Of a stretch of 64,000 bases of DNA, positions 19,423-55,865 are shown one piece after another; the stretch's first letter is position 1; each line of letters starts with the position of its first letter. A program made the translations under genes and the position numbers. Source of the DNA: an uncultured Bdellovibrionales bacterium (GTDB taxonomy: Bacteria > Bdellovibrionota_C > UBA2361 > SZUA-149 > DAOLCO01); the NCBI GenBank assembly GCA_964612555.1, contig CAZTBW010000004.1:34353-98352 (forward strand), written 5' to 3'. The notes beneath the pieces are model-generated. The model did not search any database and had not been told where the DNA came from. It saw only the letters and a list, made by a program, of their open reading frames with translations.

Positions 19423-19731
19423 CTATCTAATTTCCACCTCAATACCGGCAGAGAGTTCCAACTTCATCAAATCATCAATGGTCTGCTGAGTTGGTTCCAA
19501 AATATCAATCAAGCGCTTATGAGAACGTATCTCAAACTGATCACGAGATTTTTTATCCACGTGAGGCGATCTGTTGACGGTAAATCTTTCGATTTTAGTA
19601 GGAAGGGGAATAGGACCTGCAACTTTACCACCAGTTCTCTTAACCGCCTGAACAATTTCCTGAACTGCGGCATCCAATACCTTGTGATCATAACCACAAA
19701 GTCGTATCCGTATCCGCTGACTCCCTATCAT
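19423..19731 (-). CDS. rpsJ: 30S ribosomal protein S10
   Basis: [15 protein letters not shown]...[28 protein letters not shown] matches S10. Confidence 0.97.
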
Positions 19732-19920: not shown

Positions 19921-22530
19921 TTATCGCTTGAGTCTCTCAACTTCAACAAGCTCTCTTTTGGTAGCATTCACTGTGATGGTGTCTGCTGAGAGGATCTCGG
20001 TAAAGGGTGAGGTCAGTGGTGCAATAAAAGAGACATCAACCTTAGCTTCAGAGCCAAACTCCTCAATATTAACCATTACACATCCGGCAGAAATACTATC
20101 AGTACAAAAGACCGAGCCAGGCATTATCCGCCTCACTTCAGCAAGAGCAAGTAATCGGGCAGATTCATGATTAATTTGACTGGTATATTGTTGAGTTTCA
20201 GGCGACGATATATATCTGGGAAAACAATCAACATATTCCCCACTTTGACATATTGCGGGCATGGATTGGTACATACCCAATGAGATAAGCTCTCCCCGAT
20301 TTGTGGAAGCTGCGCAGTTAGAACGAAACTGGGTACATGCCGGATATGCACCAGAGGAAACCTCACTCATCGGCATGGTAATAGTTCTGTCTCTTAGCTC
20401 AGTAAAATCGAAAATATATTCAGGATTAGTTAAATCCACATCACCAAATGCGTTATTAGCATAAAACCTCAACGCCTGATCAAGATTCTGAAATTGAGGA
20501 GTTCCTCCACTGTAACACCCACTTGTGGGGTTACAATCAAGATTATAGTCAAAGGGAAACTGGGAAACTACATAAGGTCTTGGCTGAGGCAGTGCCCCTC
20601 CCATCCCGTCTTGAATAAATGGCCAAACCCCCTCTACAGGTACAATTTCTTCCTGAATTTTATTTTCCTGAAAAAGAAGTGAGACATCCGGCACCTCATG
20701 GATATTTCCATACCCAGCCCCCTCCTGAGCAATAACAGCCTGAAGCAGCAAATCCCTTCTCTCATCTCCCCCATCAAACCCCTCGTTTTTTCTGTACTGC
20801 CTTACGTAATGCTCCGAAGAAAGCTCTTTAGGGTTATAACCAAACCTTGGCTGCACTGCTGAAGGATTTACTATAGGAACCCCCATAAACCTGTCTGCCG
20901 TCCATGAGAAATGTCGTGAACCATTACTGAGCACAGATGACCAGCGGGGAAGTGGTACCGTAACAAACCCCCCAGTAGGCAAACTCTCAAATGCCGTCCA
21001 TGAAGGATTGGAATTTACAGCAATCACAGATGCCAGATTCTGATTAAATAAACTCCTCCGCTGAGCTTCTTTTGCATTCCAGCCCTCACATGAAGAAAAA
21101 GAACCGGGCTGACCCGCGATCGTCATATTACCACACATATGTCGCGTCTGTTCCAGTGGCACCCCTTCACTTGAAAGACAAGATGGAACATCAACAAAAA
21201 CAAGTTCCGGAAGCTGCATCAGATCAAGACCCGAGGGATTAGGCGCATGCGAAAAAGGATTTCTCGGGTCACCTAAAGGTAAAAATTCCTCCCACGTATT
21301 CCTTGCCTGATCAAAGGGAAGCCATTCACAGACCTTTCTCGTAAGTGATCTCCATTGATTACCGGTCTGACGATGCCAGGCAAGATACGTCCAGTCCTGA
21401 GAGGCAATATACGACATACCCCCTGCGCTGTTATACAAAAATGCGTTTTGATAGTTTGGGTCGGCATTCGCAGCGAAATCTCCCCACTGATTGGACTGAA
21501 ACGGAGGAAGATCAATAGAAGGATAGGAAGTAAAATAATTAATCAGATCATCAGAATTCCGAATTGCACTTCGCACCCGTGATAAAAACGCCTCAGGGTT
21601 GCAACTGTAGACGGTAATCACAACAAATTGACGAGAATTAGTAACCGCAAAGGGTCTTCCGACTCCACCCGGCACCGCCCCGCTACCAAAAAAATTTCTA
21701 TAGTGATTATCCAGCTCCGTATAGCTCAGCCCTACTTCCGAGGGCACTCCATACGTTGCCAAATCATTCGCATCAGTGTGACACACCGGACTACCCCCCA
21801 AAAGAAGCCACGGCTCCGGAGTAGCCCGTTCAGGTAAAACCATATGACAGGGAAAGGCTCTTGCAAAATCAGTAGAGGGAACCCAACTTGCATCCATATC
21901 GGCACACGCAGGGTCTTCTGCCCTGAAGTTCACTCCCTCACACCAGGCAGTATCAATATACGTCGTACTTAAATTAAAATCAGCCCCAAAAGGAACCTCA
22001 ACTCTGTTATAAACCGTACAAGACCTCGTCTCAAAACCACCTCCCGGAAGCGGTCTTTCAAAATTCCCCCGAACATCCGCCCTCAGCACCGCATAGCTAT
22101 TAAGTAATCCGATAAACCTGCTGGGACGAACTGACTTCTCAGCCCACTCGACATTATGATTGGCAGTACTTACCTCATATGAATTATAACTCGCCCCATA
22201 TACATCACGATACACCTGCCCCTGATATTGATACGTATCAAGTTGCACCTCAGAAGGACCATCCACCAAAGGATAGCCAAACCACTCAGCTTCGGAAAAA
22301 GTCTGCTCCGTATCCACCAGAACACTCCTGCAAGACTCCGCAGCGTCACTTGCGGTCAGACAACGGGCAACTCTTCTTGCTGCCTGGTCTGCGGCTGATT
22401 TCGCAGCCGTAAACTGCGTCAGATTATAAAAACTGAAAAGAAACAGTGCTCCCCCTACTGTTGAAAACATAAGGGGCAACATCCCACTGCTGCCTTTTTC
22501 ATTATCACAAGAAAACAATCCAAATCTCAT
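19921..22530 (-). CDS. giant TadE-like pseudopilin-type protein with a cysteine-rich C-terminal domain of about 800 aa and unknown family
   Basis: The N-terminus EKGSSGMLPLMFSTVGGALFLFSFYNLTQFTAAKSAADQAARRVAR resembles TadE-family leaders. I count about 20 Cys after the hydrophobic helix. The ATG at 22530 is preceded by GAGGTG; the track start at 22539 is a GTG. Confidence 0.55.
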   Translation of the reverse strand: MRFGLFSCDNEKGSSGMLPLMFSTVGGALFLFSFYNLTQFTAAKSAADQAARRVARCLTASDAAESCRSVLVDTEQTFSEAEWFGYPLVDGPSEVQLDTYQYQGQVYRDVYGASYNSYEVSTANHNVEWAEKSVRPSRFIGLLNSYAVLRADVRGNFERPLPGGGFETRSCTVYNRVEVPFGADFNLSTTYIDTAWCEGVNFRAEDPACADMDASWVPSTDFARAFPCHMVLPERATPEPWLLLGGSPVCHTDANDLATYGVPSEVGLSYTELDNHYRNFFGSGAVPGGVGRPFAVTNSRQFVVITVYSCNPEAFLSRVRSAIRNSDDLINYFTSYPSIDLPPFQSNQWGDFAANADPNYQNAFLYNSAGGMSYIASQDWTYLAWHRQTGNQWRSLTRKVCEWLPFDQARNTWEEFLPLGDPRNPFSHAPNPSGLDLMQLPELVFVDVPSCLSSEGVPLEQTRHMCGNMTIAGQPGSFSSCEGWNAKEAQRRSLFNQNLASVIAVNSNPSWTAFESLPTGGFVTVPLPRWSSVLSNGSRHFSWTADRFMGVPIVNPSAVQPRFGYNPKELSSEHYVRQYRKNEGFDGGDERRDLLLQAVIAQEGAGYGNIHEVPDVSLLFQENKIQEEIVPVEGVWPFIQDGMGGALPQPRPYVVSQFPFDYNLDCNPTSGCYSGGTPQFQNLDQALRFYANNAFGDVDLTNPEYIFDFTELRDRTITMPMSEVSSGAYPACTQFRSNCAASTNRGELISLGMYQSMPAICQSGEYVDCFPRYISSPETQQYTSQINHESARLLALAEVRRIMPGSVFCTDSISAGCVMVNIEEFGSEAKVDVSFIAPLTSPFTEILSADTITVNATKRELVEVERLKR

Positions 22531-22541
22531 ACAACGCACCT

Positions 22542-25017: not shown

Positions 25018-26139
25018 TTATTTTCCAGGTCTCTTATTTTTAAAAATAAACGGAAAAACCAGAAGTACAAGAGTCAGCCCTGCGGCTATCTGGGAAAACA
25101 TTCCTGAGTGATGATGGTGATGATCATGATGTGAAAGACTCTGATGTGCCCCTGGGTGTGGAATAATTCCTCCATCACGTGGGATACCGTATTCAATCAA
25201 AAGCCCGAAAGAAAGTGAAACAAAAATAATCGAACCTACATAATAAACCGCACCCCTTAAACCAAATTCTTTTTTTGCGGCAAGCACGGTACTGACATTT
25301 GTTGCAGCTCCTGCAAGCAGGAAAACCAGAACCGCACCAACGCTAAGCCCCTTTGCATAAAGTACTGCCGCAATGGGGGTAGAAGAGGTAGCGCATATAT
25401 ACAAAGGAAAGGACACCACCAGAGCAAGACCCATTTGAAGCAATGGGTCGGAAACGGTCTCAGTCAGGAACTCAGCCGGCAGGAGCGCAACAAAAATCCC
25501 CGACACAAGAAATCCGATTAAAAGCACCACTGAAAGATCCTTTGGAAGAACATAAAAGGCAAAAATCATTGCTTCACGAAACACCTGAAAAAAACTCTTC
25601 TTTTCAGAAGACTGTGTTTCTGCACTACTGAGCCCATGATGAGTATGATCATGGCAGCACGAGGCAGCATGAGGAGTTTCTGTATCTTCAGATTTACTTT
25701 TCTTCCCGGCAGAATCATTTGATTCCTTAATCGACTCAACCAGAGTACCCACCAGAATCCCTGACACCACCGCCGCAATAACCCGAAAGACAGCAAACAC
25801 AATACCCAAAAGCCCCTGGGTAAGAAAAAACGCGCCCACTCCAATCTCAGGCACACTGGTCATAAAACTTGCCGCTGCACCCTTACTCACTCCCCTTTGT
25901 CTGAGAGATTTCATAACCGGAATAATACCACAGGAACACAAGGGGAAGGGTATTCCCATCATGGTTGCACTGAATATTGAACTAAAACCCGGCTTCTTCA
26001 AGAACTTATTAATCAGGGTAGCCGGAAGAAAAACATGAATCACCCCGGCAAGAAAAAAACCAAAAAGCAACCACGGTGCAGCCTCTACGACCGTGTCCCA
26101 GGCAGCATGGAGAATTGATAAAAAAACAGATTCGTTCAT
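25018..26139 (-). CDS. UPF0718/ArsP-type permease with His/Cys-rich segments (putative metal transporter)
   Basis: Polytopic, 373 aa. PLCSCGIIPV is the CSCG permease motif. Central loop has CCHDHTHHG and the C-terminus has HQSLSHHDHHHHHSG. Confidence 0.65.
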   Translation of the reverse strand: MNESVFLSILHAAWDTVVEAAPWLLFGFFLAGVIHVFLPATLINKFLKKPGFSSIFSATMMGIPFPLCSCGIIPVMKSLRQRGVSKGAAASFMTSVPEIGVGAFFLTQGLLGIVFAVFRVIAAVVSGILVGTLVESIKESNDSAGKKSKSEDTETPHAASCCHDHTHHGLSSAETQSSEKKSFFQVFREAMIFAFYVLPKDLSVVLLIGFLVSGIFVALLPAEFLTETVSDPLLQMGLALVVSFPLYICATSSTPIAAVLYAKGLSVGAVLVFLLAGAATNVSTVLAAKKEFGLRGAVYYVGSIIFVSLSFGLLIEYGIPRDGGIIPHPGAHQSLSHHDHHHHHSGMFSQIAAGLTLVLLVFPFIFKNKRPGK

Positions 26140-26159
26140 TAGAAAATACTGCTCGTAAT

Positions 26160-26645
26160 TCAGCGAGCAACTTGTTTAAATTGTGGCATTGGAATAATTG
26201 AATCTTTTCCCGGGTCAACATCTTTCATCTCGGAAAGAAGTTTGGCAAGTGAAAAAGTCTCAAGGTAAGAATCTATAGTCTCCTTAAGCCCCGACCATAC
26301 CGTCCTGAGATAACAGCGGGCTTCCAGCGAGCACCTCTCAGTATCAATCGGCTTCGTATCGCAAATTAAATCCATTGTTTCTCCTTCGCAGGACAGAAGT
26401 ATCTCTCTCAGATTAATCTCGGAAGGCTCACGAGACAGTCTGTACCCACCATGAGGACCACGCTCACTCTCTACAATCCCACCGGAACGAAGCTTGACCA
26501 GAATCTGCTGCGTATAATTAAGTGCCAGGGACTGTGCCTCAGAAATATCAGAGGCACCAACTATGCTCAGCCCCTCCTGATGCCTACGAGCAATATAGAG
26601 ACAGATATGAACCCCATATTCTCCCCATTGAGTAATTCTTTGCAT
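26160..26645 (-). CDS. Rrf2-family transcriptional regulator (IscR/NsrR-like, 3-4 Cys)
   Basis: The N-terminal wHTH MQRITQWGEYGVHICLYIARR...GGYRLSR and the Cys cluster LICDTKPIDTERCSLEARC support the call. Lies 20 nt upstream of the permease. Confidence 0.8.
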   Translation of the reverse strand: MQRITQWGEYGVHICLYIARRHQEGLSIVGASDISEAQSLALNYTQQILVKLRSGGIVESERGPHGGYRLSREPSEINLREILLSCEGETMDLICDTKPIDTERCSLEARCYLRTVWSGLKETIDSYLETFSLAKLLSEMKDVDPGKDSIIPMPQFKQVAR

Positions 26646-27350: not shown

Positions 27351-29093
27351 TCAGGGATTGGAGGTTTTCACATTCACTACCATTTCCTCTTCCCCATCAA
27401 GATATATCCTCGCCCCGGAAATACCAACTGCCGAAAGTGCTTTTATGAAGAGTTCGGGGCTGAATTCAGTTGAAGAAATATCCGTTTGAGCACCAAAGGC
27501 TCCACTCATTGCAAACACCTTATCCAGTGCCTTTGTAAGGGTACTGAAATTTATAAACAATGAACCCAGATCAGTTTTCGCACCGCTCTCGGCAGAAAAA
27601 AGTTTCTTAAGCGAAACCAAAGGTACGGTACCTGAAGCCGAGGGAGACAAGAGCATCTGCACAATATCTCTGGAAGAGGTAACGGCAAGTGTAGCATCTC
27701 CTCTAGAGATAATCGAGACCTCTTCTCCAAGTGCAGTAAGAATAGTACTTGTATCATCACTCATTGCTATCCAGTCCGCACCCGGGGGAACCATGCTGTT
27801 TGACTGTAAGGCGGTTTTTACTATCTCTTTTAGCGCCTCCAAAACCCTCTCCTTATTTTCCACTTCAAGCAGGAAAGATATTGCAGGTACGGGGAGCAGA
27901 CGCTGCGTATCAACTGCGGACAGAAAAAAACCAATAGAGCTAACATCTGAAAGAATACTTAAAAGTCTCGGTTCATAATTTAAAATAATATCCCGATTTT
28001 CCTGCAAAAGCTTTTCAGTGAACAGCTCTGACAACTCCAAAGAAAGAATGGTATTTTGAGGTATCGTCTCTCTTCTCTTAACAGAAGATGTAAGGGTGCC
28101 CTCCTGATCTTCAGACTTTAAAAATTTCCTGATTTTCTCCGATGCCTTCACTCTTAACTCGGCACCATACGTACTCTCAAAACTCTGGTTAAACGCCATC
28201 AACACTTCTTCAGAAGAAGACTTGTCTGATTCCTGCTTTAAAAGTCCCCCACCAAAAGCTTCCTGATGCATACCAAAAGCAAAAGGAAATGCCGTTTCCG
28301 GAGCACCCTTAAGACCACCAAAGATCACACTCTTTTTAAGATATTCCAACTTACCTGCAAGAGAAATAAACTCCCGATCGGAAAATATTTCGGGTAACTT
28401 CCCTTGTCGTTCCAGAAACACTTCTTCGATAACTTCCTTACTGGAAGCTGAAACAATATAAGAATCTTTCAGTCCAAGGTACCTGAAGGCAGGAATGATC
28501 GCCCCTTTATCCTCAAACTCCAACACACTTAACTCCCCGCTTTGTATCACCTTGACGGGAGTCCCCTTTTTACTGACGGCATCCGCTATTTCTTTTGCCT
28601 TACTTCCCAGATTTTCCAGTTTTAATCGGGTAATAAACCCCGCATGGTCTTCATCATTTTCACTTTGCACATCAGATTCTGAATGTACAGACTCAGCACG
28701 AGAGATAAACTGAGCCGACTCCATGGTGTACACATCGGAAACTTTCTTTCCATTTAATAAACCTGCCTCTTCAAGTATTGATTCAAATCCACTGAGAGAA
28801 GAATCGATACGCTCCTTTATTTCATCCGGAAGGCTCTTTTCCCAATATTCTTTCTGCTTCCTGGCAACACCATCAGTATTTAAAAAAAGAAGAAACCCAT
28901 AAGTACGCTTGGGTAACATCGACACCACTGAACCATCAATTGCGCTCAGAAAATCATCAAAGACTGTCTCGGGAGCACTACCGGACAATTTCACCGATTT
29001 CTTTTCTGAAGAAGCATCCTCCTTTTTGGAGCAGGCTCCTGAAAAGATAAATAGTAAGAACAATAAAAATATAGTTGCTTTGTGTATTCTCAT
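27351..29093 (-). CDS. large secreted protein or lipoprotein of unknown function (about 580 aa)
   Basis: Signal peptide MRIHKATIFLLFLLFIFSGAC with a lipobox-like SGAC. The track start at 29096 is a GTG and the ATG is at 29093. I recognise no catalytic motif. Confidence 0.5.
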   Translation of the reverse strand: MRIHKATIFLLFLLFIFSGACSKKEDASSEKKSVKLSGSAPETVFDDFLSAIDGSVVSMLPKRTYGFLLFLNTDGVARKQKEYWEKSLPDEIKERIDSSLSGFESILEEAGLLNGKKVSDVYTMESAQFISRAESVHSESDVQSENDEDHAGFITRLKLENLGSKAKEIADAVSKKGTPVKVIQSGELSVLEFEDKGAIIPAFRYLGLKDSYIVSASSKEVIEEVFLERQGKLPEIFSDREFISLAGKLEYLKKSVIFGGLKGAPETAFPFAFGMHQEAFGGGLLKQESDKSSSEEVLMAFNQSFESTYGAELRVKASEKIRKFLKSEDQEGTLTSSVKRRETIPQNTILSLELSELFTEKLLQENRDIILNYEPRLLSILSDVSSIGFFLSAVDTQRLLPVPAISFLLEVENKERVLEALKEIVKTALQSNSMVPPGADWIAMSDDTSTILTALGEEVSIISRGDATLAVTSSRDIVQMLLSPSASGTVPLVSLKKLFSAESGAKTDLGSLFINFSTLTKALDKVFAMSGAFGAQTDISSTEFSPELFIKALSAVGISGARIYLDGEEEMVVNVKTSNP

Positions 29094-29117
29094 CACTTTT
29101 TTCCGGATATTTAAAAA

Positions 29118-31520: not shown

Positions 31521-32666
31521 TCAATTTTCATCTTTGGGCTGATAAAGAAAAGGACTGTTTTCTGATTTCAGATTATCTGCCTTCATCAAAAGCTCGACTG
31601 TTTCATTGTACCCGAGTTCAATAAGGGCGCTGATGTACTCCGGGTGTAGTGCGGCATAAGAAAGTACTTCATAGGCAAGCTCTTCACCCATTTTGTGTTT
31701 AAGAATCCTGAAAATAGGCCACGTTGGTCCAAGCGCATCAATAAAATTCTTTGTGGATTTACCAACTGCCTGTTTCAGCAGAGTTCCAAATGGAGACGTG
31801 TTCACCACCTCGAACATTCTTGAAGGCATCACACAAAAACTGGATTCCCGGGCGAGTATTTCCCAGTCCGGTCTTGTATCGTGTGGTTCTCCATAATGAT
31901 CAAACCACCACCGTCTGCCGGACGAATCAAGAAGAAGTATCGCATCTGCCCCTAAACGAAGCGCGGGGTCGACAGGGATGTTATCACAAATACCGCCATC
32001 AACAAGTCGAACCTCATGCTTCTCAAGATTAAGATCAACTGCCGGAAGAACGGAGGGGAGCGCAGCAGAAGCAAAACCATGAGAGGCAGTAAGTTCATCA
32101 AGACAGAGTAGTTCAAAATTTGCCCCTGCAAGAGACTCCTCTCCGGGAACCTCTTTACATACCGCAAGTAAAAGTGCCTTTCTCTCCACCCCTTCCATCG
32201 TAGTCATCACGGCAACAGAAGAAAGATCAGAAGGCAAGGAACCCGCAGTTAAACCCCCAAGTGCGCGGATTGCTTCATTTACCTCATTTTTAAGAGGGGT
32301 AGGGTCAAAAATAGAAACGGTACTTGCAACAGGACCGGGAGAGCGATAACGAAGCATTGCAACCTGAATCGCACGAAGAAAGGTTTTGGACATATGTCCT
32401 GAAAAAGTATTGCGATATGTTCTTTTAATCCATAGCTCTTCAAGGAGATTCAATGAATGACTCAAGGGGTGTCTAAGACCTGCACTGAGAATAAGCGAAT
32501 TAACCGCACCGATACTTGTGCCGACCACCACCTTGATCTTCTCCTGAGACACACTCGTGTGATCGTAAATAGCCTTTAAAGCCCCGACCTGATACGCAGC
32601 CCGTGAGCCACCTCCTGAAAGAACAATCCCTAAATTTGAACCTGCTATGTTTTTATCTTTATCCAC
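31521..32666 (-). CDS. patatin-like phospholipase
   Basis: GGGSRAAYQVG (oxyanion GGGxR), GTSIGA (GxSxG) and VDGGICDN (DGG). GTG start. Confidence 0.85.
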   Translation of the reverse strand: MDKDKNIAGSNLGIVLSGGGSRAAYQVGALKAIYDHTSVSQEKIKVVVGTSIGAVNSLILSAGLRHPLSHSLNLLEELWIKRTYRNTFSGHMSKTFLRAIQVAMLRYRSPGPVASTVSIFDPTPLKNEVNEAIRALGGLTAGSLPSDLSSVAVMTTMEGVERKALLLAVCKEVPGEESLAGANFELLCLDELTASHGFASAALPSVLPAVDLNLEKHEVRLVDGGICDNIPVDPALRLGADAILLLDSSGRRWWFDHYGEPHDTRPDWEILARESSFCVMPSRMFEVVNTSPFGTLLKQAVGKSTKNFIDALGPTWPIFRILKHKMGEELAYEVLSYAALHPEYISALIELGYNETVELLMKADNLKSENSPFLYQPKDEN

Positions 32667-32780
32667 TTCGTTCCCTGTCTCATGAGAAGATGCTCACCTC
32701 TCTACTCCCAGTATACCTTATTTTTAGATTCCTGAAGATACCAATTTTATCCTTTTATTTTACTCTAGAATGACCTTTCA

Positions 32781-33527
32781 TTATGGCGCTCCCATATAAC
32801 TGCACCAGATAAAATACTCCTGATTCTCACTCTTCTTGCCCTTAAGTCTGGAAGGAAGGAGACCTTTCTCCTTCATATGATGAGTACCCAGAACTTCTCT
32901 TACCCTGGAAAACGCAATTTCAGCATCCGAAGGGTTTTTTAATATCCCTCCATCGGCAATATAATGTGGTTCAAGCTCGAATTGAGGCTTGATAAGCATC
33001 AAAAGATCAGCTCCATTTGAAATCACCTCTGCAAGAAAAGGAATGACTTTTGAAAGACTAATAAAACTGACATCCACAACGACAAAATCAGGAACAGGCT
33101 CGAACCCTATAGTGGATAATGCATTTGCATGAGTTTTTTCGTAGACCCTTACCCGAGAATCAATTCTGAGCTTATGGTCAAGCTGATTAGTCCCGACATC
33201 AACTGCATACACCAGAGACGCTCCATGCTGAAGCAGACAATCAGTAAACCCCCCCGTTGATGAACCCAGATCAAGACACACCCTTCCTTCAGGGCTCAGC
33301 AAAAACTCCTCAAGTGCACCCTCAAGTTTTTCCCCACCACGACCTACGTAGCGAGAATTTCCACCTCTGATTCGAATATCAGCATCAAGAGGCACCATTG
33401 TTCCGGATTTTGTAATGGGGACGTTATGAACCAACACTTCGCCGGCAAGAATCAATGCCTGCCCCTTCTCACGTGTCGGTACAAGCTTTCTTTCCAGTAA
33501 AAGCTTATCTAATCGCTGTTTACTCAC
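32781..33527 (-). CDS. tlyA: TlyA-family rRNA 2'-O-methyltransferase (haemolysin A-like)
   Basis: S4-like N-terminus SKQRLDKLLLERKLV plus an FtsJ-type methyltransferase (CLDLGSSTGGFTDCLL). GTG start. Confidence 0.85.
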   Translation of the reverse strand: MSKQRLDKLLLERKLVPTREKGQALILAGEVLVHNVPITKSGTMVPLDADIRIRGGNSRYVGRGGEKLEGALEEFLLSPEGRVCLDLGSSTGGFTDCLLQHGASLVYAVDVGTNQLDHKLRIDSRVRVYEKTHANALSTIGFEPVPDFVVVDVSFISLSKVIPFLAEVISNGADLLMLIKPQFELEPHYIADGGILKNPSDAEIAFSRVREVLGTHHMKEKGLLPSRLKGKKSENQEYFIWCSYMGAP

Positions 33528-33540
33528 TCAGACAGAGACA

Positions 33541-35028
33541 CTACTCAACGATACTCATAATATCAGCTTCATCCTCTTCCTCTTCAGAATCCCCTCTTTC
33601 ATTCCCGGCAGCAGGTAATGACAAACCGGTTTTCCCGAAACGATCCCAGGCAACAAGCAGCTTATACGCTTCATCAAGCTGAGAATCCAGTGAAAGCAGA
33701 TTAGCCAAATCCATTTTCATAAGAGAGCGAACCGTAATAGGCTCTCTCTCATCGGCATTCAGAGTTTCCCCACTCCCGGACTTTCCCTGATCAGGTTTCA
33801 CTGATGGATTTTTTATCGCACCGGGAAGGTCTTTTTCCTTAACCCGAGGCTGTGCCAGCGGAAGAGACTGCTCAGCCTGAGTTCTATCTTCCGGAGATAC
33901 CACTTTTAACTCGACTTCAATATCAGGCTTGATTCCTTCAGCCTGAATAGACCTTCCACTCTTGGTATAATAAAGCGCAGTGGTAAGTCGCAGCGCATCT
34001 CCCGACTCCATAGGGAGTACTGTCTGCACACTCCCCTTACCAAATGTCTGTTTACCCATGATCAACGCACGACCATGGTCCTGCAAAGCCCCGGCAATGA
34101 TTTCAGAGGCAGAGGCAGAACCCTCATTAACAAGTACTATTATTGGATATTCAGGCTCCATAGCATCATTATGAGCAAAAAATTTCTGCTTCTGACTTTC
34201 CAGACGCCCCTCGGTGTACACCACCACACCTTCCTTAAGAAAAAGATCAGCAATACGAATCGCCTGATTTAAAAGTCCACCGGGGTTATTTCGAACATCA
34301 ATGATAAGCCCTTTTAAACCGATCTTGCCATTTAAACCATCAAGATCCTTCAGTGCCTGACGGAACTCATCTGAAGAACCCTCCTGAAACTGCGCAAGAC
34401 GAATATATCCATACTCCTTTCCGAGCGAACGGTACCGCACACTCTTTACCTTGATAATATCCCGCACTACCGCAATTGGCAGTAAGTCTTTTCTTCCTTT
34501 TCTATTAATGGAAATCATAACGGAAGTCCCTTTTGGACCTCGCATTCTTTTTACCGCATCCTCAAGAGAAAGATTCTTCGTAAACTCATCCTCGATCTTG
34601 ATAATCTGATCTCCTGCTTTCACACCGGCTCTGAATGCGGGGGAATCTTCAATAGGAGCTACTACAGTAAGTACTCCCTCTTTAACTGTTATCTCAATAC
34701 CAAGACCACCAAATTCACCCGAGGTTTCTTCTCTCAGTGAATCATAATGTTGCTTGTTCATGTATCCGGTATGAGGATCAAGAGTGGAGAGCATCCCCTT
34801 GATGGCACCTTCAACAAGACTTTCAATATCCACCATCTCAACGTAGTTCTTCTCAACAAGCCCTAAAACATCTGAAAATGTTTTTAAAATTCTATATTCG
34901 TCCTTGGAATCATTCTGGACAGCTTCAGCCAGCTCTATGGTCTTTGCAAAAGCAAAACCGAGAAGAAAAGTAAACAGGAGAAAAACAAAGGATTTAAATG
35001 TACTATTTATGTGTCTCATCTTATGCAC
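33541..35028 (-). CDS. ctpA: carboxy-terminal processing (S41) peptidase
   Basis: PDZ segment plus NEGSASASEIIAGALQD and GKQTFGKGSVQ. Has a signal peptide. Start is the GTG at 35028 or the ATG at 35019. Confidence 0.9.
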   Translation of the reverse strand: MHKMRHINSTFKSFVFLLFTFLLGFAFAKTIELAEAVQNDSKDEYRILKTFSDVLGLVEKNYVEMVDIESLVEGAIKGMLSTLDPHTGYMNKQHYDSLREETSGEFGGLGIEITVKEGVLTVVAPIEDSPAFRAGVKAGDQIIKIEDEFTKNLSLEDAVKRMRGPKGTSVMISINRKGRKDLLPIAVVRDIIKVKSVRYRSLGKEYGYIRLAQFQEGSSDEFRQALKDLDGLNGKIGLKGLIIDVRNNPGGLLNQAIRIADLFLKEGVVVYTEGRLESQKQKFFAHNDAMEPEYPIIVLVNEGSASASEIIAGALQDHGRALIMGKQTFGKGSVQTVLPMESGDALRLTTALYYTKSGRSIQAEGIKPDIEVELKVVSPEDRTQAEQSLPLAQPRVKEKDLPGAIKNPSVKPDQGKSGSGETLNADEREPITVRSLMKMDLANLLSLDSQLDEAYKLLVAWDRFGKTGLSLPAAGNERGDSEEEEDEADIMSIVE

Positions 35029-35123
35029 TTAATTATTTTAGCCTGACACTAATGAATATGATTATTGTGTTTAAGATTACTTGGGATTAGCAAAAGATAC
35101 AAGTTATTGTAAATAAACGCTTA

Positions 35124-36323
35124 CTATTGATATTTCACAAGATATTTCTCAGGATTCAGGGGTTTACCTTCTTTTCTGATTTCAAAATAAAAATTTCTGC
35201 CCTTTATGTCCGGCACAGAAGTCCTGCCCACAATATCTCCCGCTTCAACCCTCTCATCTATAAACTTTTCCGGCACTATTCTCCCATAGAGAGTATAAAA
35301 TTCAGCAGGATGCTCAATAATTAAAACATTTCCGAAACCAGGTAATTCCGAGTTAAATACTACAGTTCCATTTGAAACCGCCCTGACGCTGCTTCCTTCA
35401 ATTGTGGCAACTTCAATTCCTTTTACAAAAATTATATCAGAAAACTCATCATGCTTCTGCTTCCCAAAATGTTGCACCACGGTTCCTTTCTCGACCGGAA
35501 AAGGAAGGGAGCCTGAAGTAAATCCGGGGGATGCCGGCACACCCTGAGTTTTCTTCTCTGCCTTTCTGACTCCACCTGTGATTTTTTGAATTACCTCCTC
35601 CAGATTACGCTCTTCCTTACGATAAGAAAGAAGAACGCTTTCCTTTTTTTTGATCGTTTCCGAAAGTTCTTTTACAAAACGAGCCGCCTCAAGCTGTCTC
35701 GGAAGAAGGTCTTTTCTTATATTTGCGATACGCTTCTGGGTCTCTTCCTCCTCCAGTTTCAATTTATCGAGATCAAAAGAGGTAAGAGAAAGAGTTTCAA
35801 GCAAGATCTTGTATTCCTGAAGTTGCTCATTATCATTTTCTACAAGTCGTTTCAGGTAATCTGCCCGTTTGTAAAAAGAATTAAGCTCAGATGAGATCAA
35901 AAGAAAACTTATCGATGTAAGCTTTCTCCTTGATTTATACATTTGAGTTATTCTATTGGAAAATGAGTCTTTTTTCAGGCTTATCTGTGAAGTGATATCC
36001 TGAATCTGTAGTTCAAGTGAATCAATCTGCGTAAGAAGCGATGCGAGCGATTGTACGCTCATTCCCTCATCTTTCTTTAATTTGGCAAGCTCACCTTCAA
36101 CCACGGTCAATTTAGCCTGTGCCTGCTCTGAATCTTTTTTAATACTACGCATCTCATGCTCGATTCGGGATATTTTCTTTTTAAGCTCCTTCAACTCACC
36201 AGCGTATTTTCCGGTAGAAGACATATCAGCAGCGTCCTGAGCAAAGAGCGAAGAGAACCCGGATATACCACAAAACAGAAATATGATTACCGCAAAAAAA
36301 ACACTGGGAAAAACTATCTTCAT
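35124..36323 (-). CDS. envC: EnvC-like murein hydrolase activator (coiled coil plus degenerate LytM/M23 domain)
   Basis: Signal peptide, a long coiled coil and a C-terminal LytM fold. The catalytic positions appear substituted (FYFEIR instead of HFE; no clean HxxxD). Confidence 0.8.
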   Translation of the reverse strand: MKIVFPSVFFAVIIFLFCGISGFSSLFAQDAADMSSTGKYAGELKELKKKISRIEHEMRSIKKDSEQAQAKLTVVEGELAKLKKDEGMSVQSLASLLTQIDSLELQIQDITSQISLKKDSFSNRITQMYKSRRKLTSISFLLISSELNSFYKRADYLKRLVENDNEQLQEYKILLETLSLTSFDLDKLKLEEEETQKRIANIRKDLLPRQLEAARFVKELSETIKKKESVLLSYRKEERNLEEVIQKITGGVRKAEKKTQGVPASPGFTSGSLPFPVEKGTVVQHFGKQKHDEFSDIIFVKGIEVATIEGSSVRAVSNGTVVFNSELPGFGNVLIIEHPAEFYTLYGRIVPEKFIDERVEAGDIVGRTSVPDIKGRNFYFEIRKEGKPLNPEKYLVKYQ

Positions 36324-38057: not shown

Positions 38058-38621
38058 TTAATTCCTTTTTAGAATTTTGGATGAGGTGATAGAAACCTGA
38101 TAATTCCTACCGGGGGTACAGGAGAAGTTAAATTCACGTTTTCCCCCTGCCTTGATGGTAAACGTATCAGAAGTAATATTTTTTGTACCTCTCGTACCAC
38201 TTTCACTGATACGCAAGCCCAGTGAATAGGCATTACACTTGCTGCTGTTCTCAACAACGGAACGACAACTGCTTGTCCCTGTTTTTCTGATAGAGGCACT
38301 AATCACAGAAGACTTACCACCCGGCGCTTCGTCACCAAGATCAACATCAATCCCAGCCATAAGCCCAAATGTACCAATGCTTGCAATGGCTCCAGTCGGC
38401 ACTCGCTCATTTTTCTCAGAATCAGCACATGGGTCAGTAGAATCAGGTTCCACTTCCCCTTTATCTGTACCTGTAGCTGTTTCCACCACCCCCGCCTCTT
38501 CAGTCCCCTCACAAATACCAGAAGCAGGAAAAAACATATTTACTGTCATAAAAAAAACAGCAAAAGCAAAAATAATATTTTTTGCCGATACTCCACTCAG
38601 ATCAGAAAAGAACAGTTTCAT
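38058..38621 (-). CDS. secreted or membrane-anchored hypothetical protein (187 aa), 3 nt upstream of ftsE
   Basis: N-terminal hydrophobic helix, an acidic Thr/Glu-rich linker and a Ser/Thr-rich beta-type C-terminus with several Cys. I recognise no family. Confidence 0.4.
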   Translation of the reverse strand: MKLFFSDLSGVSAKNIIFAFAVFFMTVNMFFPASGICEGTEEAGVVETATGTDKGEVEPDSTDPCADSEKNERVPTGAIASIGTFGLMAGIDVDLGDEAPGGKSSVISASIRKTGTSSCRSVVENSSKCNAYSLGLRISESGTRGTKNITSDTFTIKAGGKREFNFSCTPGRNYQVSITSSKILKRN

Positions 38622-39859: not shown

Positions 39860-40528
39860 ATGAGTAACGAACGAATCTACAGTGCGGTAATACTATCAGA
39901 GAATCTTAAGAAAGACACCTACTTCAAGTCTTTTCTGAGAAGCTCTTCATTTTTTGCGGTACTGCAACACGTCCACCATTCAGAGATAGCTTCTCGGAGT
40001 GGTCTTTTTGATACCGTCGATCATATTTTCTTTTCTGATGAGCTTTCCGAGACTCTCCTCGGTGAAATAAAAACTAAGATAAAATCCAATTATACTATTT
40101 TAACCAAGCCAAAGATTATCCTGTACTCCTTAAAGGAACATATCCCCAGAAGAAAACTTATCAGAAGCCTGATTGCCGGAGCTAATGCGTTTGTAGTTGC
40201 ACCGTTTACCCATAGCACTCTTGCAGAAGCCTGTGACTTTTCTCAAAAAATCCCTCCTGATGAAGCGTCTCAGACAAGACTCAAAATAGCAGTCAGGATG
40301 ATGATTCAGGATAGCGTTGACGAATCTGAAACCCCTTCTATGGTTCATAAGATACCGGATGAAACAAAGCAGTATTTTAAAGAGCTTGGAGATAAAAACC
40401 TGTCAAGCAACCTGGTACAGTACCTTTCAAATCTCACTCACGTAAACAGAATAGGGACATACGAACATCTCCACACAAAAGTACAAAGATTCATCAAGGA
40501 AAGAATTAAAAATCATCTTGACGGTTAA
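39860..40528 (+). CDS. hypothetical protein with a receiver-like (pseudo-REC) N-terminal half
   Basis: The pattern AVILSEN...VDHIFFSDEL...IILYSL...IAGANAFVVAPFTHSTLAEA follows the CheY-like beta/alpha layout, but the acidic pocket is not canonical. Confidence 0.35.
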   Translation: MSNERIYSAVILSENLKKDTYFKSFLRSSSFFAVLQHVHHSEIASRSGLFDTVDHIFFSDELSETLLGEIKTKIKSNYTILTKPKIILYSLKEHIPRRKLIRSLIAGANAFVVAPFTHSTLAEACDFSQKIPPDEASQTRLKIAVRMMIQDSVDESETPSMVHKIPDETKQYFKELGDKNLSSNLVQYLSNLTHVNRIGTYEHLHTKVQRFIKERIKNHLDG

Positions 40529-44183: not shown

Positions 44184-44993
44184 CTATCTGACATTGTACT
44201 TCTTGGCGACCTCCTCCTTCGCCTTGGGAAGACCATTTCTAAGAGCTTCTGAGTTGGTAGCTCTTGCAGGCCAGGTCGTCGGAAGACTAATTCCTTCAGA
44301 AGAAATAACTCTTCTTTCGACATCCCAGAACCATCCCCCGGAAGCAACGCCGACCACTTCCTTACTCTCGTTAAAGACGGGGCAACCCGAGTCTCCAACG
44401 ATTAGAAAAGCGTCTGCGTAAATCTTGTCTCGAGTACTAACGCTCAAAACAGGGGCTGTAAAACTCCTGAGAACTTTAGAACTACCACCAAATCCTGCGA
44501 ACTCGACTAGATCGCTCACTTCACTACAATTTGCAGCAATAGGAGCTGGGGTGATCTCATCTGGAATCCACGCATAGATCAATGCGACATCATTTTTTGC
44601 GTCACTCCATACGCAATCAGACTTCGTTCCCGCCTTTCCATTTGCGTAAACAATTCTGATTGTGTTTATCGAGTTCCATTTTGCAGAAGGATCTTCCTCT
44701 TTATTAGAGGAGACCAGGATATGACGAGCAGTTGCAACCAAGCCATAACTGCCACCTTTGTGCTTTGCCTCAAACTTGTGCACCACCACGGCGCTACCGT
44801 TTCCGAGGTTTGCCACCTCGATTTTCGCAACCGCACCATGGTGAGGAGCTGCCTCCGTCCATTTCCAAAGCTGAGTCTCAGCTCCAACTGGTTTGGCCAC
44901 ATTTGCAACTTGGGTAAGTTGCACTTCCTGCGCCAGTAAAGAATTAAAACCGAAGATAGCCGAAACGGCTACAGTAAACAGAACCTTTTTCAT
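44184..44993 (-). CDS. secreted trypsin-like (S1-type) serine peptidase, divergent
   Basis: Signal peptide MKKVLFTVAVSAIFGFNSLLA. Candidate triad is ATARHILV (His), KNDVALIY (Asp) and GDSGCPVF (Ser). Confidence 0.6.
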   Translation of the reverse strand: MKKVLFTVAVSAIFGFNSLLAQEVQLTQVANVAKPVGAETQLWKWTEAAPHHGAVAKIEVANLGNGSAVVVHKFEAKHKGGSYGLVATARHILVSSNKEEDPSAKWNSINTIRIVYANGKAGTKSDCVWSDAKNDVALIYAWIPDEITPAPIAANCSEVSDLVEFAGFGGSSKVLRSFTAPVLSVSTRDKIYADAFLIVGDSGCPVFNESKEVVGVASGGWFWDVERRVISSEGISLPTTWPARATNSEALRNGLPKAKEEVAKKYNVR

Positions 44994-51208: not shown

Positions 51209-52057
51209 CTATAAGGCAGGTGCATCCGGAGCGTATCTTCCAAGAAAATCAAGCACCGTTTGAGCTCTCACATTGGTGTATAAAGTAATGTCACCCGGAC
51301 GGCAGATTTGATCAGGTCTGACCCCGGGAGCACTTTGTGAAACAACTCCCGTAACAACTCTCGACCCTGAACGCCCAACCACAAGCGGACCTCCCGAATC
51401 ACCCTGACAAGGATGTGACTGATTACCCTCAAATCGCACAGTAATATGATTCTGATCAACTCCCGCAACTATGACATTTCCCGCCCTGGGTCGGGCATCC
51501 AGAGAACCCGGGGAGGTTTCACCAAAACCACCAACAGACGCCTCTTCACCCACCCGAGGACTTTCTGAAATCAAAATGGGCATAGGAGAAATCCCCATTG
51601 CCTCCGCGCTGAAAACGATCGCAATATCATCAAAACCAACAACCCCACCACCCACTACTTCGTCACGATAGGTAGAGGGAAACACATAACGGGAAGCAGA
51701 CACATTACCGGCAGTTGTCTGAATAGTGATACCAAGAATAGTACCCTCCACACAATGAGCTGCGGTAAGCACCTTGTCATTATCAATGATAGCACCTGAA
51801 CAGATACTGGTTCCGCGCAAGGAATTTATCAAAAGACGCACAAGGGGGCTGTTCTCAGAGGCAACCGTACAGACCTCACCATTTGCAATTTTTTCCCGGG
51901 CAAAATTAAATGCAGCACAGGCATTCTGCTGGGACACATTACCGGATGAAGAATCACCATCTTTATCACTGTCACTACTACAGGCAAAAACTGAAAAAAC
52001 CAGATAAAGTAATACAAGAACGCTTTTTAATCTCATATTCATTGGTGTCATATTCAT
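51209..52057 (-). CDS. secreted trypsin-family (S1) serine protease, probable lipoprotein
   Basis: LTAAHCVEG, DDIAIVF and CQGDSGGPLVV form the triad. Lipobox-like VFAC. Four in-frame ATGs lie within the first 8 codons, so the start is uncertain. Confidence 0.9.
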   Translation of the reverse strand: MNMTPMNMRLKSVLVLLYLVFSVFACSSDSDKDGDSSSGNVSQQNACAAFNFAREKIANGEVCTVASENSPLVRLLINSLRGTSICSGAIIDNDKVLTAAHCVEGTILGITIQTTAGNVSASRYVFPSTYRDEVVGGGVVGFDDIAIVFSAEAMGISPMPILISESPRVGEEASVGGFGETSPGSLDARPRAGNVIVAGVDQNHITVRFEGNQSHPCQGDSGGPLVVGRSGSRVVTGVVSQSAPGVRPDQICRPGDITLYTNVRAQTVLDFLGRYAPDAPAL

Positions 52058-52925: not shown

Positions 52926-53954
52926 ATGTCCCTAACTCAAATTATCAAAGATTTTCTCTTCATGGCTTTCAGAAGAATCCTCAAGAAAAAGAAGAACAAT
53001 AAAAAAGTCGACCCTCCCGACGCTTCACCGAAAAAACAGGTTCTCGTACCTGAAAAAAATGGCAGCCTCCTCGGCAGTAACAGTGAAATCAGGATTTCAA
53101 AATCAGGAAATATTATTCAAAGGCTGTATCGGGACAAGGCACATGGCATGGCAACAGTCGGGTTATGGTTTCCTCTCTTTGCCGGAGCATGGCTTGTTTC
53201 AGGAGTGGTCTTAAAAAATCTTTTACTCCTTTCTCTTTGCACAACCCCCTTAATCCTGATTCACCTCAGCGCCCACCTGAAAGAAATCAGGGAAGTTCCT
53301 TTCAGAAAAGAACTTGAAATACTTCTGGTAGTACTGGCAGTAGCAGTTCCCCTGTTTATTTTTAACAGATATGGAAATTTACTACTCCCAATTTCCAGTG
53401 GTCTGGCAAATCTGTTCTATCTCTACATAAAACATAGACCCCCTACTACCACCACCCAATCTATAACGCAGAGCCTCCTCTGTTTCATGTTCCCGGGCTT
53501 GCTTGCTGAGATTGGAGTACTTTCACAAATGCATACCATTGAAAATCCGGATATTAACAAAGCATACATAGGGTACAGCATCCTTGGCATTATACCAGGC
53601 AGTGTTCTTGCTGCCCGGGAATTACTGTTACAATATCCGATTTTTCAAAAAGCCCGCTGGACACTATCAGTACAGACAATGAATAAAAAAGGTGAGCCTG
53701 TCAGTCGTCCGGGAAGTTTTACCAGACTCGTAGTAATAACAATGATTCTTGGTCCTGCTTTTCCTGCACTGCAACTTCCCTTCAACCTCATTCCCGACAG
53801 CTTTCTACTTGCCTCCCTTGCCTTTATCTACCTTCCCAAAATCGCCCAGAAAATCCAGGATTCACCGGATAACCACCCATCCCAAGCCATTCATCTTGCA
53901 AATCTGGGGCTTGCTTTGGGAATCACAATGTTTATTGCAGCTCTACTCACCTAG
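52926..53954 (+). CDS. polytopic membrane protein of unknown function (342 aa)
   Basis: Basic N-terminus, then about 8 TM helices. I see no Asp-rich prenyltransferase motif. Confidence 0.4.
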   Translation: MSLTQIIKDFLFMAFRRILKKKKNNKKVDPPDASPKKQVLVPEKNGSLLGSNSEIRISKSGNIIQRLYRDKAHGMATVGLWFPLFAGAWLVSGVVLKNLLLLSLCTTPLILIHLSAHLKEIREVPFRKELEILLVVLAVAVPLFIFNRYGNLLLPISSGLANLFYLYIKHRPPTTTTQSITQSLLCFMFPGLLAEIGVLSQMHTIENPDINKAYIGYSILGIIPGSVLAARELLLQYPIFQKARWTLSVQTMNKKGEPVSRPGSFTRLVVITMILGPAFPALQLPFNLIPDSFLLASLAFIYLPKIAQKIQDSPDNHPSQAIHLANLGLALGITMFIAALLT

Positions 53955-55865
53955 TTCACTACTCTTTAGCTTGTAAAGACCTTCTACTTTTGTTGAAGAA
54001 AGCTGCCCCATTTTTAAAAACCCGGGGAGATCATTAAAGAACGTAGCATCATGAGGGTCTTTATACACATAGTCGGGACAAACATCAGGTTTTCTGCATG
54101 CAAGTAAAGATTTCAGATTACTATTCAGAGCCCTCCTTTCTGAATACTCTATCGCATGACTGTGCAGCCAGCCATCATACCCCACATACTGTCTTCTACC
54201 GGCGACAGTAACCACACTCTTGTGCAGGGGTGCACTTGCAATGATAGTATCAGGAGGAGTTTCATTTCTTATTTCTGAAACTTTTTTGAGTTCACTCTCA
54301 CTATAGATCACTGAGTAGTTTCCCTTAGACCAGATCATCAAAGTTTCAAACCCCGAAGGTGCAAGGCTTATCAAGAAACAGAAAAATAAGGGCAACGAAG
54401 AGTATCCAAAATGGCGCTGCAAAGAAATTAAAATGACAAAAAGCCCGATAAAAGCTTTAAGAGTATCCCACTCCCATACACTTAGTTGTAAAAAATTAAA
54501 GAGCAGAAAAAAAAGAACCAGCGGAATTGCAAAGACCACACCTGAAGCCCATAATATAAAAGGAATTATTACAATCCATATACCAAGATTCAAAACCCAC
54601 ATCATCAGATGCTTCATAAATGACACCTGAAACCACTCAGGGAGAAAAGAGTAAGACCAGCCCAGAGTAGAGCCTCTTAAGGTAGATGCCATCCAGACCG
54701 AGGGAAACTCTATCATACCCGATTTTGAGCCGTATAAAATTAAAACCGGAAGCGAGAAACACAGAACTGACAGAGAAAACACAAAAAAAGTTTTCTTATA
54801 TTGCAACTCACCATAATTTTTTAAGGCAAGCAGAAACAATACCGCTCCAAGATAAGCAATACCGACTCCAACAATATGAAAATGACACAATAATCCAACG
54901 GCAAGAGAAAAAGCGATTAACAGCAATAAAGAGTAAGTAATTTTCTGCTCTCTGCTATCTCCTGAAACAAGTTTTCCGGCTGCAAGCATTTCAAAAAAAA
55001 GACAAAGACTGGAAGCTGAAACAAGAAGACCCAACAAACTGCTCCTTTGAGTAACCCAGATCGTACTTAAAAAAACCGTAACAGGATACCCCCTGCCAAG
55101 ATAATTATGAGATAACTGCCCTTCAAGACCGGGAACAGAAACACCAATCTGAGATAAAAACACAGGCATACTTCCACCTGAAAAAAGCAGCACCCAGGGT
55201 AATATTCCATACACCCTTTTCCTGAAAAGAAAGAACACCCCCATCCATACAAGCACCCATTGAAATAAAAAAACAAAAGAAAGCGATTTCCAGTCCGGAG
55301 AAAAAGACCAGAGGAGTGCAGACCAGAAGTTAATTAAAAATGGATAGGAAAGCTCCTTCCCGGGGAATATATGATACTCCTGAAGCATTCCGTTTGAAAA
55401 AACCATATTGGCAATCATCCCAAGATGAAAAGGAAGATCACCATAATTATTCACCCATAGAGTCCTTATGCCTTTATCTGCATCAAAAATTGAGACTCCA
55501 AGTGCAAGGACAACAGTAAAAAAACTGACAAAAGAAAAGTCTATAGTACTCAGAAGTGATATTTTTTTCACTGCGGTGTGTTTCTTTATTTCCTTAAAAG
55601 ACAGGGATGTGAGTAAAATAAAAGAAAGAACAAATCCGCTAGAAAGTGTCAGACCGAAAAACACAAGTACCCAGGACAGTAAAAGATGAAGCAACAATCC
55701 AAGTGTCCAGAAAAAAACCTTATAAGTATCATTCACGCATGAAATATTATTATTTTTATCAGATGAAAAAAACTTAAACACACAGCGAAAGGAAACTTCC
55801 CCGTACACTCGATAAAACAGAGGGGGTAAAAATAAAAAAATTAAAAATACTATCAGGTTCAACAA
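53943..55865 (-). CDS. large polytopic membrane protein, GT-C/ArnT-like architecture (640 aa)
   Basis: About 14 TM helices followed by a soluble C-terminal domain. TTG start at 55865, position uncertain. The 3' end overlaps the convergent gene by 12 nt. Confidence 0.4.
   Translation of the reverse strand: MLNLIVFLIFLFLPPLFYRVYGEVSFRCVFKFFSSDKNNNISCVNDTYKVFFWTLGLLLHLLLSWVLVFFGLTLSSGFVLSFILLTSLSFKEIKKHTAVKKISLLSTIDFSFVSFFTVVLALGVSIFDADKGIRTLWVNNYGDLPFHLGMIANMVFSNGMLQEYHIFPGKELSYPFLINFWSALLWSFSPDWKSLSFVFLFQWVLVWMGVFFLFRKRVYGILPWVLLFSGGSMPVFLSQIGVSVPGLEGQLSHNYLGRGYPVTVFLSTIWVTQRSSLLGLLVSASSLCLFFEMLAAGKLVSGDSREQKITYSLLLLIAFSLAVGLLCHFHIVGVGIAYLGAVLFLLALKNYGELQYKKTFFVFSLSVLCFSLPVLILYGSKSGMIEFPSVWMASTLRGSTLGWSYSFLPEWFQVSFMKHLMMWVLNLGIWIVIIPFILWASGVVFAIPLVLFFLLFNFLQLSVWEWDTLKAFIGLFVILISLQRHFGYSSLPLFFCFLISLAPSGFETLMIWSKGNYSVIYSESELKKVSEIRNETPPDTIIASAPLHKSVVTVAGRRQYVGYDGWLHSHAIEYSERRALNSNLKSLLACRKPDVCPDYVYKDPHDATFFNDLPGFLKMGQLSSTKVEGLYKLKSSELGE

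Follow-up and report, generated by a model that had tools for sequence, protein, structure and literature searches.

An 869-residue cysteine-rich protein with a pilin-like N-terminus, a putative tip subunit of Tad pili, in an uncultured Bdellovibrionales bacterium

The gene and its product

The window analysed here is a 64,000-nucleotide stretch of DNA from an uncultured Bdellovibrionales bacterium (assembly GCA_964612555.1, contig CAZTBW010000004.1, positions 34,353 to 98,352 of the forward strand), and the subject of this work is one gene within it that encodes a cysteine-rich, pilin-like protein of 869 amino acids (aa), together with the tightly coupled 512-aa and 229-aa genes that lie upstream of it on the same strand (Table 1). 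A preliminary description, made from the letters of the window, had proposed a protein of about 870 aa in which a TadE-like N-terminal helix is followed by some 800 residues, possibly a disulfide-stabilised extracellular tip or adhesin domain on a minor-pilin anchor. The open reading frame (ORF) is much as described, at 869 aa with ~810 residues following the N-terminal hydrophobic helix, and it is located on the minus strand, a point that had been left unstated. The ORF listing also offers a GTG start at 22539, which would give an 872-aa product (19921..22539, minus strand), but the ATG at 22530 was judged the likelier start because a Shine-Dalgarno-like AGGTG lies 6 nt upstream of it, and because both the coordinates given in the preliminary description and the database gene call P0001, an identical protein of 869 aa, agree with it. 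The ATG falls 11 nt past the TAG stop of the 229-aa gene, and the position of the AGGTG directly after that stop may be read as translational coupling.

The protein contains 21 cysteines: C8 in the short leader and 20 after the hydrophobic helix, in line with the earlier count of about 20, and all five of the cysteine motifs quoted at that time are present in the translation. Its richness in aromatic, asparagine, and proline residues amounts to a modest rise, with aromatics at 11.9% (F 6.1, Y 4.0, W 1.8), proline at 6.7%, and asparagine at 5.6%. Lysine is strikingly scarce, at 1.3% as against 5.9% arginine, in a genome of only ~43-46% GC. There is a single strongly hydrophobic stretch, which is N-terminal (residues ~14-36), and self-BLAST found no internal repeats, as had been stated. 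Neither the 869-aa nor the 872-aa version of the protein matched any Pfam or NCBIfam model, even at E<=1.

Table 1. Coordinates in the window of the three genes, the Shine-Dalgarno-like site, and the predicted domains of the 869-aa protein.
Feature	Position	Strand	Basis and remarks
Gene, 869-aa cysteine-rich pilin-like protein	19921..22530	minus	ATG at 22530, stop at 19921-19923; ORF listing, database match, and relatives
Shine-Dalgarno-like AGGTG	22537..22541	minus	6-nt spacer to ATG; directly after TAG stop of 229-aa gene; sequence reading
TadE-like small pseudopilin, 229 aa	22542..23231	minus	Pfam TadE E=0.0013, below cutoff; G-N-G-M-L-E (Gly, Glu+5), then hydrophobic helix
TadG/CpaL-like partner, 512 aa	23228..24766	minus	Pfam Tad (PF13400) E=4e-5, above cutoff; predicted vWA-like fold, AlphaFold2 (AF2)
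Residues 1-58, candidate pilin-type anchor	22357..22530	minus	Leader 1-13, Gly13, hydrophobic helix ~14-36, alpha-1 to 58
Residues 59-180, beta-rich domain with long antiparallel strands	21991..22356	minus	Strands 68-178 predicted by AF2; kept across the wide family
Residues 181-660, central mixed alpha/beta region	20551..21990	minus	Conservation profile, cysteine conservation and co-occurrence, AF2
Residues 661-869, conserved beta-rich C-terminal domain	19924..20550	minus	Cysteine conservation; C-terminal matches in most distant relatives

An unnamed family of full-length proteins

A word-indexed search yielded 11 proteins, 847-890 aa long and 37-100% identical, one of which is named Oligoflexia bacterium, and a scan of GTDB species found five metagenome-assembled genomes whose labels read Oligoflexia, Bdellovibrionales, Bdellovibrionota, or, for a single genome, Proteobacteria. 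A profile search over 1.84 billion representatives, clustered at 50% identity, extended the family to ~112 related representative clusters at E<=0.001, with 88 at E<=1e-10. Nearly all relatives are 850-1005 aa long and contain ~18-33 cysteines; they match chiefly through residues ~10-160 at the N-terminus and 520/670-862 at the C-terminus. The GC content of the loci spans 0.41-0.65, and several lineages are therefore involved. That the ORF might be an assembly fusion of two genes, a doubt raised in the preliminary description, was excluded: the conservation alignment comprises 79 relatives with lengths of 800 aa or more, nearly all falling within 850-1005 aa, and these are uniformly full length and span both ends. 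The 869-aa gene is real and complete.

Across these 79 relatives, the most conserved segment in the profile is the N-terminal helix. Apart from cysteine, the residues conserved in at least 80% of sequences are mostly glycine, proline, alanine, leucine, and aromatics, and the polar ones are R56, D62, R278, R688, E860, and E863. No histidine or serine is found among the positions conserved at this level; there is therefore no recognisable catalytic set, which argues for a structural rather than a catalytic role. An enzyme identity was considered and judged unlikely on the same ground, that no residues of catalytic type are conserved.

The cysteine framework is well kept, and conservation of the cysteine positions among homologues, on which the original proposal depended, was indeed found. 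All 20 extracytoplasmic cysteines are invariant in the close clade, and 14 are retained in at least 91% of the 79 full-length relatives: Cys57, 67, 672, 732, and 761 are invariant, and Cys197, 209, 401, 451, 466, 481, 769, 809, and 817 exceed or equal that threshold, the last three being kept in at least 95%. Cys171/228/250/310 form a clade-specific set. Cys666 and Cys739 co-occur in 39 of the 79 sequences and never occur one without the other. Because this pair is gained and lost together while Cys672 and Cys732 never vary, the bonds 672-732 and 666-739 are likely to be nested. The preliminary description had seen the cysteines often in local pairs, and for two of these, 666-672 and 732-739, the co-occurrence pattern points to the nested arrangement instead. 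Overall, we infer four disulfides in the C-terminal domain, 672-732, 666-739, 761-769, and 809-817.

Predicted structure

The AF2 model of the 869-aa protein was built from an alignment of 11 sequences only and has a mean predicted local distance difference test score (pLDDT) of 78 and a predicted template modelling score of 0.49. It contains a 33-residue alpha-1 helix (residues 26-58) that ends in a near-invariant R56-C57 motif. Entry into the beta-rich domain that follows includes the Cys57-Cys67 pair; W83 and Y102 lie within this domain, and pLDDT is mostly 82-94 over residues 91-180. Across the wide family, sequence varies most in the central region, which is associated with Cys197/209, 401, 451, 466, and 481, as well as Cys171/228/250/310; within it, residues 441-660 are modelled with high pLDDT and residues 181-440 with lower values. 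The C-terminal domain finishes in a conserved motif, ...KRELxExERL.

A search of PDB sequences with the family profile was empty. Foldseek comparison of the model with the PDB gave nothing at E<=0.001 (best E 0.36, over 45 columns), and the same was true of the viral folds in BFVD (best E 1.0, over 58 columns). As modelled, the ectodomain is without a recognisable relative among solved structures, and it falls into no described family. The large domain had earlier been said to resemble no recognisable family, and for its C-terminal region, too, Pfam, NCBIfam, the PDB sequence search, and both Foldseek searches returned no match to an adhesin or enzyme family already known.

The two partner proteins

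The 512-aa gene overlaps the 229-aa gene by 4 nt. The 229-aa protein was the only start-of-frame instance of G-x4-E followed by a hydrophobic helix in a six-frame scan of the 64-kb window, the other match being to an internal SecY-like segment. The G-x4-E motif is seen in the family of this partner across loci, and its orthologue at one relative's locus (L009) passes the Pfam TadE cutoff, scoring 28.1 vs 22.9 bits.

The AF2 model of the 512-aa partner has a pLDDT of 67, and its best-ranked Foldseek matches in the PDB are mostly vWA-containing proteins: Ku80, TFIIH p44, complement C2a, Rea1 MIDAS, VWF A1, and CMG2. The probabilities of these vWA matches are mostly 0.85-1.0 and their E-values 0.007-0.1; Streptococcus sanguinis PilB (7ba2) is also among the fold matches, at rank 43. 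With its PF13400 match and its predicted vWA-like fold, we regard this partner as TadG/CpaL-like. Its metal-ion-dependent adhesion site motif is non-canonical (SDGIS), and the vWA-like core is broken at residues 155-219 and 266-352 by long inserts of low confidence; the latter insert, together with its flanks, contains the invariant Cys232, 303, 326, and 353 and a conserved GHYPNP motif. Glu+5 is also absent from this protein.

Gene order in the window and in relatives

Eighteen loci containing a family member were examined, the N-termini of the partners being judged by eye. It had been asked whether homologues always sit next to the 229-aa and 512-aa partners. They frequently do: both partner types, ~500-aa TadG-like and ~230-aa TadE-like, adjoin the family member in 15 of the 18 loci (the window, L001-L005, L007-L011, L013, L014, L016, and L017), and at the P0106 locus the adjacency is ambiguous. 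An 872-aa ORF adjoining the L016 relative was tried as a paralogue and rejected, its sequence being unlike the family and its N-terminus ClpB-like by eye.

In three loci of the 17-26% identity class (L009, L010, and L014), the trio lies inside a Tad locus. The order there is RcpC/CpaB, in places a ParA/TadZ-like gene, the T2SSE ATPase (TadA/CpaF), two T2SSF genes, the family member, the PF13400 protein, the TadE protein, a response regulator, and a hybrid histidine kinase; in L010 a tetratricopeptide repeat protein comes after this series. The trio thus takes the position of tadE, tadF, and tadG in canonical loci, and because it follows RcpC, T2SSE, T2SSF, and T2SSF in all three cases, the link of the 869-aa family to Tad pili is now direct. 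In these loci the response regulator and hybrid histidine kinase always come after the trio (L009 14340-17536, L010 7516-10703, and L014 10178-12999), which suggests that a dedicated two-component system is coupled to the tip cassette in Tad-embedded relatives.

Elsewhere, namely in the window, L001, L002, L007, L011, L013, L016, and L017, the trio is an orphan. In the window it stands directly upstream of the S10 ribosomal operon, which begins with rpsJ (19423-19731) and runs on to ~5000, and this synteny upstream of rpsJ is kept at 37-53% identity (L001, L002/L006, and L007), with an ammonium transporter gene inserted between trio and operon in L002 and L007. Between the 869-aa gene and rpsJ, nothing resembling a terminator was detected, and a promoter and terminator scan around the trio performed no better than on shuffled sequence.

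The N-terminus

The N-terminal consensus of the family is (R/K)-G-S-x-S-L-...-F-S-T-..-G-..-F-x-L-L-F-x-N-L-..-Y-V-x-A-..-A-V-E-Q-A-A-R-..-A-R-C-(L/I)-T-P-T-D-P-x-C. Its layout is that of a pilin, with a short leader, a glycine, a hydrophobic helix of ~22 residues, and an amphipathic continuation. The residue at +5 is Q, S, T, or similar in most relatives, and glutamate is retained there (G-x4-E) only in the rare relatives P0059 and P0076. The context for prepilin peptidase cleavage is mixed: the conserved glycine and the short leader with its hydrophobic helix are as expected, and glutamate at +5 is missing.

The TadE-like label that the preliminary description attached to this helix is supported by gene context and was left unconfirmed by sequence statistics. 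Formally, the 869-aa protein lacks three properties of TadE proteins, namely a Pfam match, Glu+5, and the size (869 vs ~150-200 aa). Nor is it a TadG, because it has neither a PF13400 N-terminus nor a vWA domain; no match to PF13400 was found in its sequence, and Foldseek gave no match of its model to a vWA-like fold. The assignment as a pseudopilin rests mainly on architecture and gene context. We describe the protein as one that may work like a tip pilin of the KilN type, or of the TadF slot, without assigning it to either family.

Interpretation

We consider it probable, although well short of assured, that three minor pilins (pseudopilins) form a tip or priming module of a Tad, or type IVc, pilus and that the 869-aa protein is the largest of them, anchored by its alpha-1 helix and bearing a disulfide-stabilised head of undescribed fold. 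The original idea of a disulfide-stabilised tip or adhesin domain on a minor-pilin anchor is supported by the results above; processing of the leader, assembly into a trimer, location at the tip, and binding as an adhesin are steps that we infer. In such a scheme, the 512-aa, 229-aa, and 869-aa proteins would be co-transcribed, and the hydrophobic helix at the N-terminus of each would insert it into the inner membrane. Their ectodomains would fold and become oxidised in the periplasm, where the 869-aa protein would form ~10 disulfides. On the TadB/C platform, the three alpha-1 helices would come together as a bundle to form a priming or tip complex, Flp pilin would polymerise beneath it, and the complex would thereby come to lie at the distal end of the pilus, where the large ectodomain may contact a target surface or cell. 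The absence of Glu+5 would fit a subunit that has no pilin above it, as GspK exemplifies. In the clade to which the window belongs, the trio would have become separated from the Tad core genes and now form an orphan cassette upstream of the S10 operon.

Several observations weigh against this assignment. At +5 the window protein has leucine or proline rather than glutamate. The cleavage glycine itself is ambiguous (G13 or G16), owing to an insertion of one residue in the window clade. No Pfam TadE or Tad match was obtained for the 869-aa protein at E<=1, and among 10 distant relatives searched against Pfam, nine likewise had neither; the tenth, P0117, gave a sub-threshold TadE match at E=0.03. 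Alignment of the N-terminus by hhalign was in register with both partner families but weak, at P=0.0011 (probability 20%) with the TadE-like family and P=0.007 with the TadG-like family; the two partner families aligned with each other at P=2e-4. Family members at L012 (4055-6613) and L018 (8001-10997) have no adjacent TadG-like or TadE-like partners. Finally, neither Pfam searches of the large ORFs nor the six-frame G-x4-E scan turned up a Tad core gene, an Flp pilin, or a prepilin peptidase in the 64-kb window. At L012 and L018, the neighbouring genes encode ordinary signal peptides, and the linkage of the trio is frequent rather than absolute.

The same missing glutamate can be read in another way. 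It would fit a distal position, with nothing above it, but it equally fits an uncleaved membrane anchor, and the 869-aa protein could be a periplasmic Tad component held in the inner membrane (acting as an anchor, aiding alignment or assembly, or serving as a sensor for the adjacent two-component system) that never enters the fibre. The lack of a Pfam TadE signature, the lack of Glu+5 in the 512-aa partner as well, and the response regulator and hybrid histidine kinase that follow the trio in the Tad-embedded relatives all agree with this, and TadG of A. actinomycetemcomitans was reportedly found by Tomich and coworkers, in 2006, not to be processed by TadV. An 800-residue ectodomain with ~10 disulfides would, however, be very large for the periplasm of a small cell; the slot and the partners are those of minor pilins, and published models place analogous large proteins at the tip. 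Tip-most pseudopilins also typically lack Glu+5, GspK of type II secretion being one that does. We therefore regard an uncleaved component as unlikely. A complex independent of Tad pili, with the trio as an exapted envelope cassette co-regulated with or parked by the S10 operon, would account for the orphan loci listed above, for the place upstream of rpsJ conserved at 37-53% identity, and for the missing terminator-like site between the two. The presence of the same family within Tad loci in L009, L010, and L014, the pilin-type N-termini that the partners have kept, and the precedents in Myxococcus and Bdellovibrio for tip cassettes standing alone and for scattered tad genes make a function unrelated to pili quite improbable.

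Most remote of all, in our judgement, is that the protein is a lytic enzyme or toxin, secreted or released at the surface by a Tad-like machine resembling type II secretion, with the N-terminal helix serving as an export signal only. Bdellovibrionota include predators, the window encodes hydrolases of secreted type (trypsin-like, M23, S41, and patatin), and an ectodomain whose fold matches nothing known could formally be an enzyme. Against this, there is no conserved constellation of histidine, serine, aspartate, or glutamate, the conserved residues being mostly of the structural kinds given above; no enzyme family was matched by sequence or fold; and the helix is the most conserved segment of the protein, which would be unexpected for a mere signal.

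Beyond the tip module as favoured here, a bolder version would have the ~810-residue ectodomain be a new fold that serves, with its vWA-type partner, as a Tad pilus head for recognising targets or prey, or even for attacking membranes, and would have the family, with its conserved ends and variable middle, be a repertoire of specificity-swapping heads across several uncultured lineages. We hold this to be rather doubtful.

Comparison with known systems

GspK, the largest subunit of the trimeric GspI-J-K pseudopilus tip of type II secretion, caps the fibre and is ~300 aa long, with an alpha-domain insertion; this tip is said to have been described by Korotkov and Hol in 2008. Like GspK, the 869-aa protein would be the largest subunit of a trimeric tip and lacks Glu5. 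GspK belongs to another system, however, and is only ~300 aa, and no similarity between it and the 869-aa protein was detected in sequence or, by Foldseek comparison with the PDB, in fold.

A close parallel in architecture is with the Kil/Tad-like pilus of Myxococcus xanthus, in which four trios of the minor pilins KilL, KilM, and KilN, the "Tips", form predicted spearhead tips; kil cluster II contains one trio, and the other three are encoded in separate clusters (Herrou et al. 2025, PMC12075869). The extra domain of the large pilin KilN has no homologue in the PDB, and numerous disulfides are predicted in the Tips. Structural comparison, rather than sequence, revealed analogues of the Tips in Bradymonas and in Bdellovibrio bacteriovorus (Bd0114, Bd0115, and Bd0148); the Tip hidden Markov models of Herrou et al. 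matched almost only Myxococcales, and TadE/F/G are predicted to form similar tips in other bacteria (PMC12075869). The trio described here shares with KilL/M/N three adjacent pilin-like genes of unequal size (conserved here in 15 of 18 loci), one very large subunit with an extra domain lacking structural homologues in the PDB, many conserved cysteines or predicted disulfides (the bonds here being deduced from cysteine conservation), cassettes that can lie apart from the core machinery, and occurrence in phyla that contain predators, Bdellovibrionota included. It differs in having two large proteins (512 and 869 aa), one of them vWA-like, and in that the 869-aa protein of the window has no clear G-x4-E site. 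By rough totals from the deposited models, its overall size is similar to that of the Myxococcus trios, at ~1600 residues compared with ~1100-1400; the total for the Bdellovibrio tip is ~1060. The 869-aa protein is likened to KilN by architecture and description and not by sequence.

With TadE/F/G (CpaJ/K/L), the likeness is one of position and partners. In relatives, the trio has the same slot after tadA-tadB-tadC, the 229-aa partner is TadE-like, and the 512-aa partner is TadG/CpaL-like; the 869-aa protein stands in place of a second pseudopilin of TadE/F type. Canonical TadE/F proteins are ~150-200 aa and match Pfam TadE, whereas the window protein has no Pfam match and carries ~810 extra residues with 20 cysteines and no vWA domain. 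In Caulobacter, CpaL/TadG is a vWA-bearing minor pilin predicted to be at the tip with CpaJ and CpaK (PMC12607857), and in B. bacteriovorus, where the tad genes are scattered and PilD takes the place of TadV, prey invasion requires a lone tadG (10.64898/2026.07.08.737194). Modular pilins are established in S. sanguinis (PMC8179133), where PilB (pilin plus vWA) and PilC (pilin plus lectin) similarly join a functional module to a pilin anchor, so that the filament displays it (PMC8179133, PMC9934059). That filament is type IVa-like and made by a monoderm, and its modules belong to known families, whereas the module here is far larger and of unrecognised fold. The architecture, which the preliminary description had called unusual, is no longer so in kind, since large modular minor pilins at Tad tips have been published (PMC12075869, PMC12607857).

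Other features of the window

Just upstream of the trio (25018-26645) are genes for an Rrf2-family regulator and an ArsP_1-type permease with a C-terminal run of histidines and cysteine motifs; the same pair precedes the trio in L001. The window is otherwise mostly housekeeping in content, and its hydrolases are a patatin-like phospholipase, an S41 protease, an M23 peptidase by FtsEX, and two trypsin-like proteases (31521-36323, 44184-44993, and 51209-52057). Several sizeable ORFs have no Pfam family match (27351-29096, 52926-53954, 53943-55865, 60265-61377, 38058-38621, and 39860-40528); among them are a 581-aa protein, lipobox-like at its N-terminus (FSGAC), whose best match was only E=0.11, and a 640-aa protein. 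The GC skew of the plus strand is negative throughout positions 1-64000 (-0.004 to -0.33), and the minus strand carries nearly all of the genes, which is consistent with a window that lies within one replichore and whose genes are co-oriented with replication.

Significance

Tad pili mediate adhesion, surface sensing, and contact-dependent predation, and it has recently been argued that the complex of minor pilins at the tip sets their function. Minor-pilin trios at Tad tips are already known; what is new is an unnamed protein family that has no structural relatives, widespread in metagenomes yet rare, at ~112 clusters at 50% identity, and without a Pfam model. Current understanding is not overturned, and after the 2025 work the finding will not surprise a specialist, but it will serve annotation as well as structural and functional studies of the Tad tips of uncultured Bdellovibrionota, for which the domain boundaries and the partial disulfide map are concrete targets. 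For the organisms themselves, it would extend the idea of the tip cassette to uncultured Oligoflexia and Bdellovibrionota.

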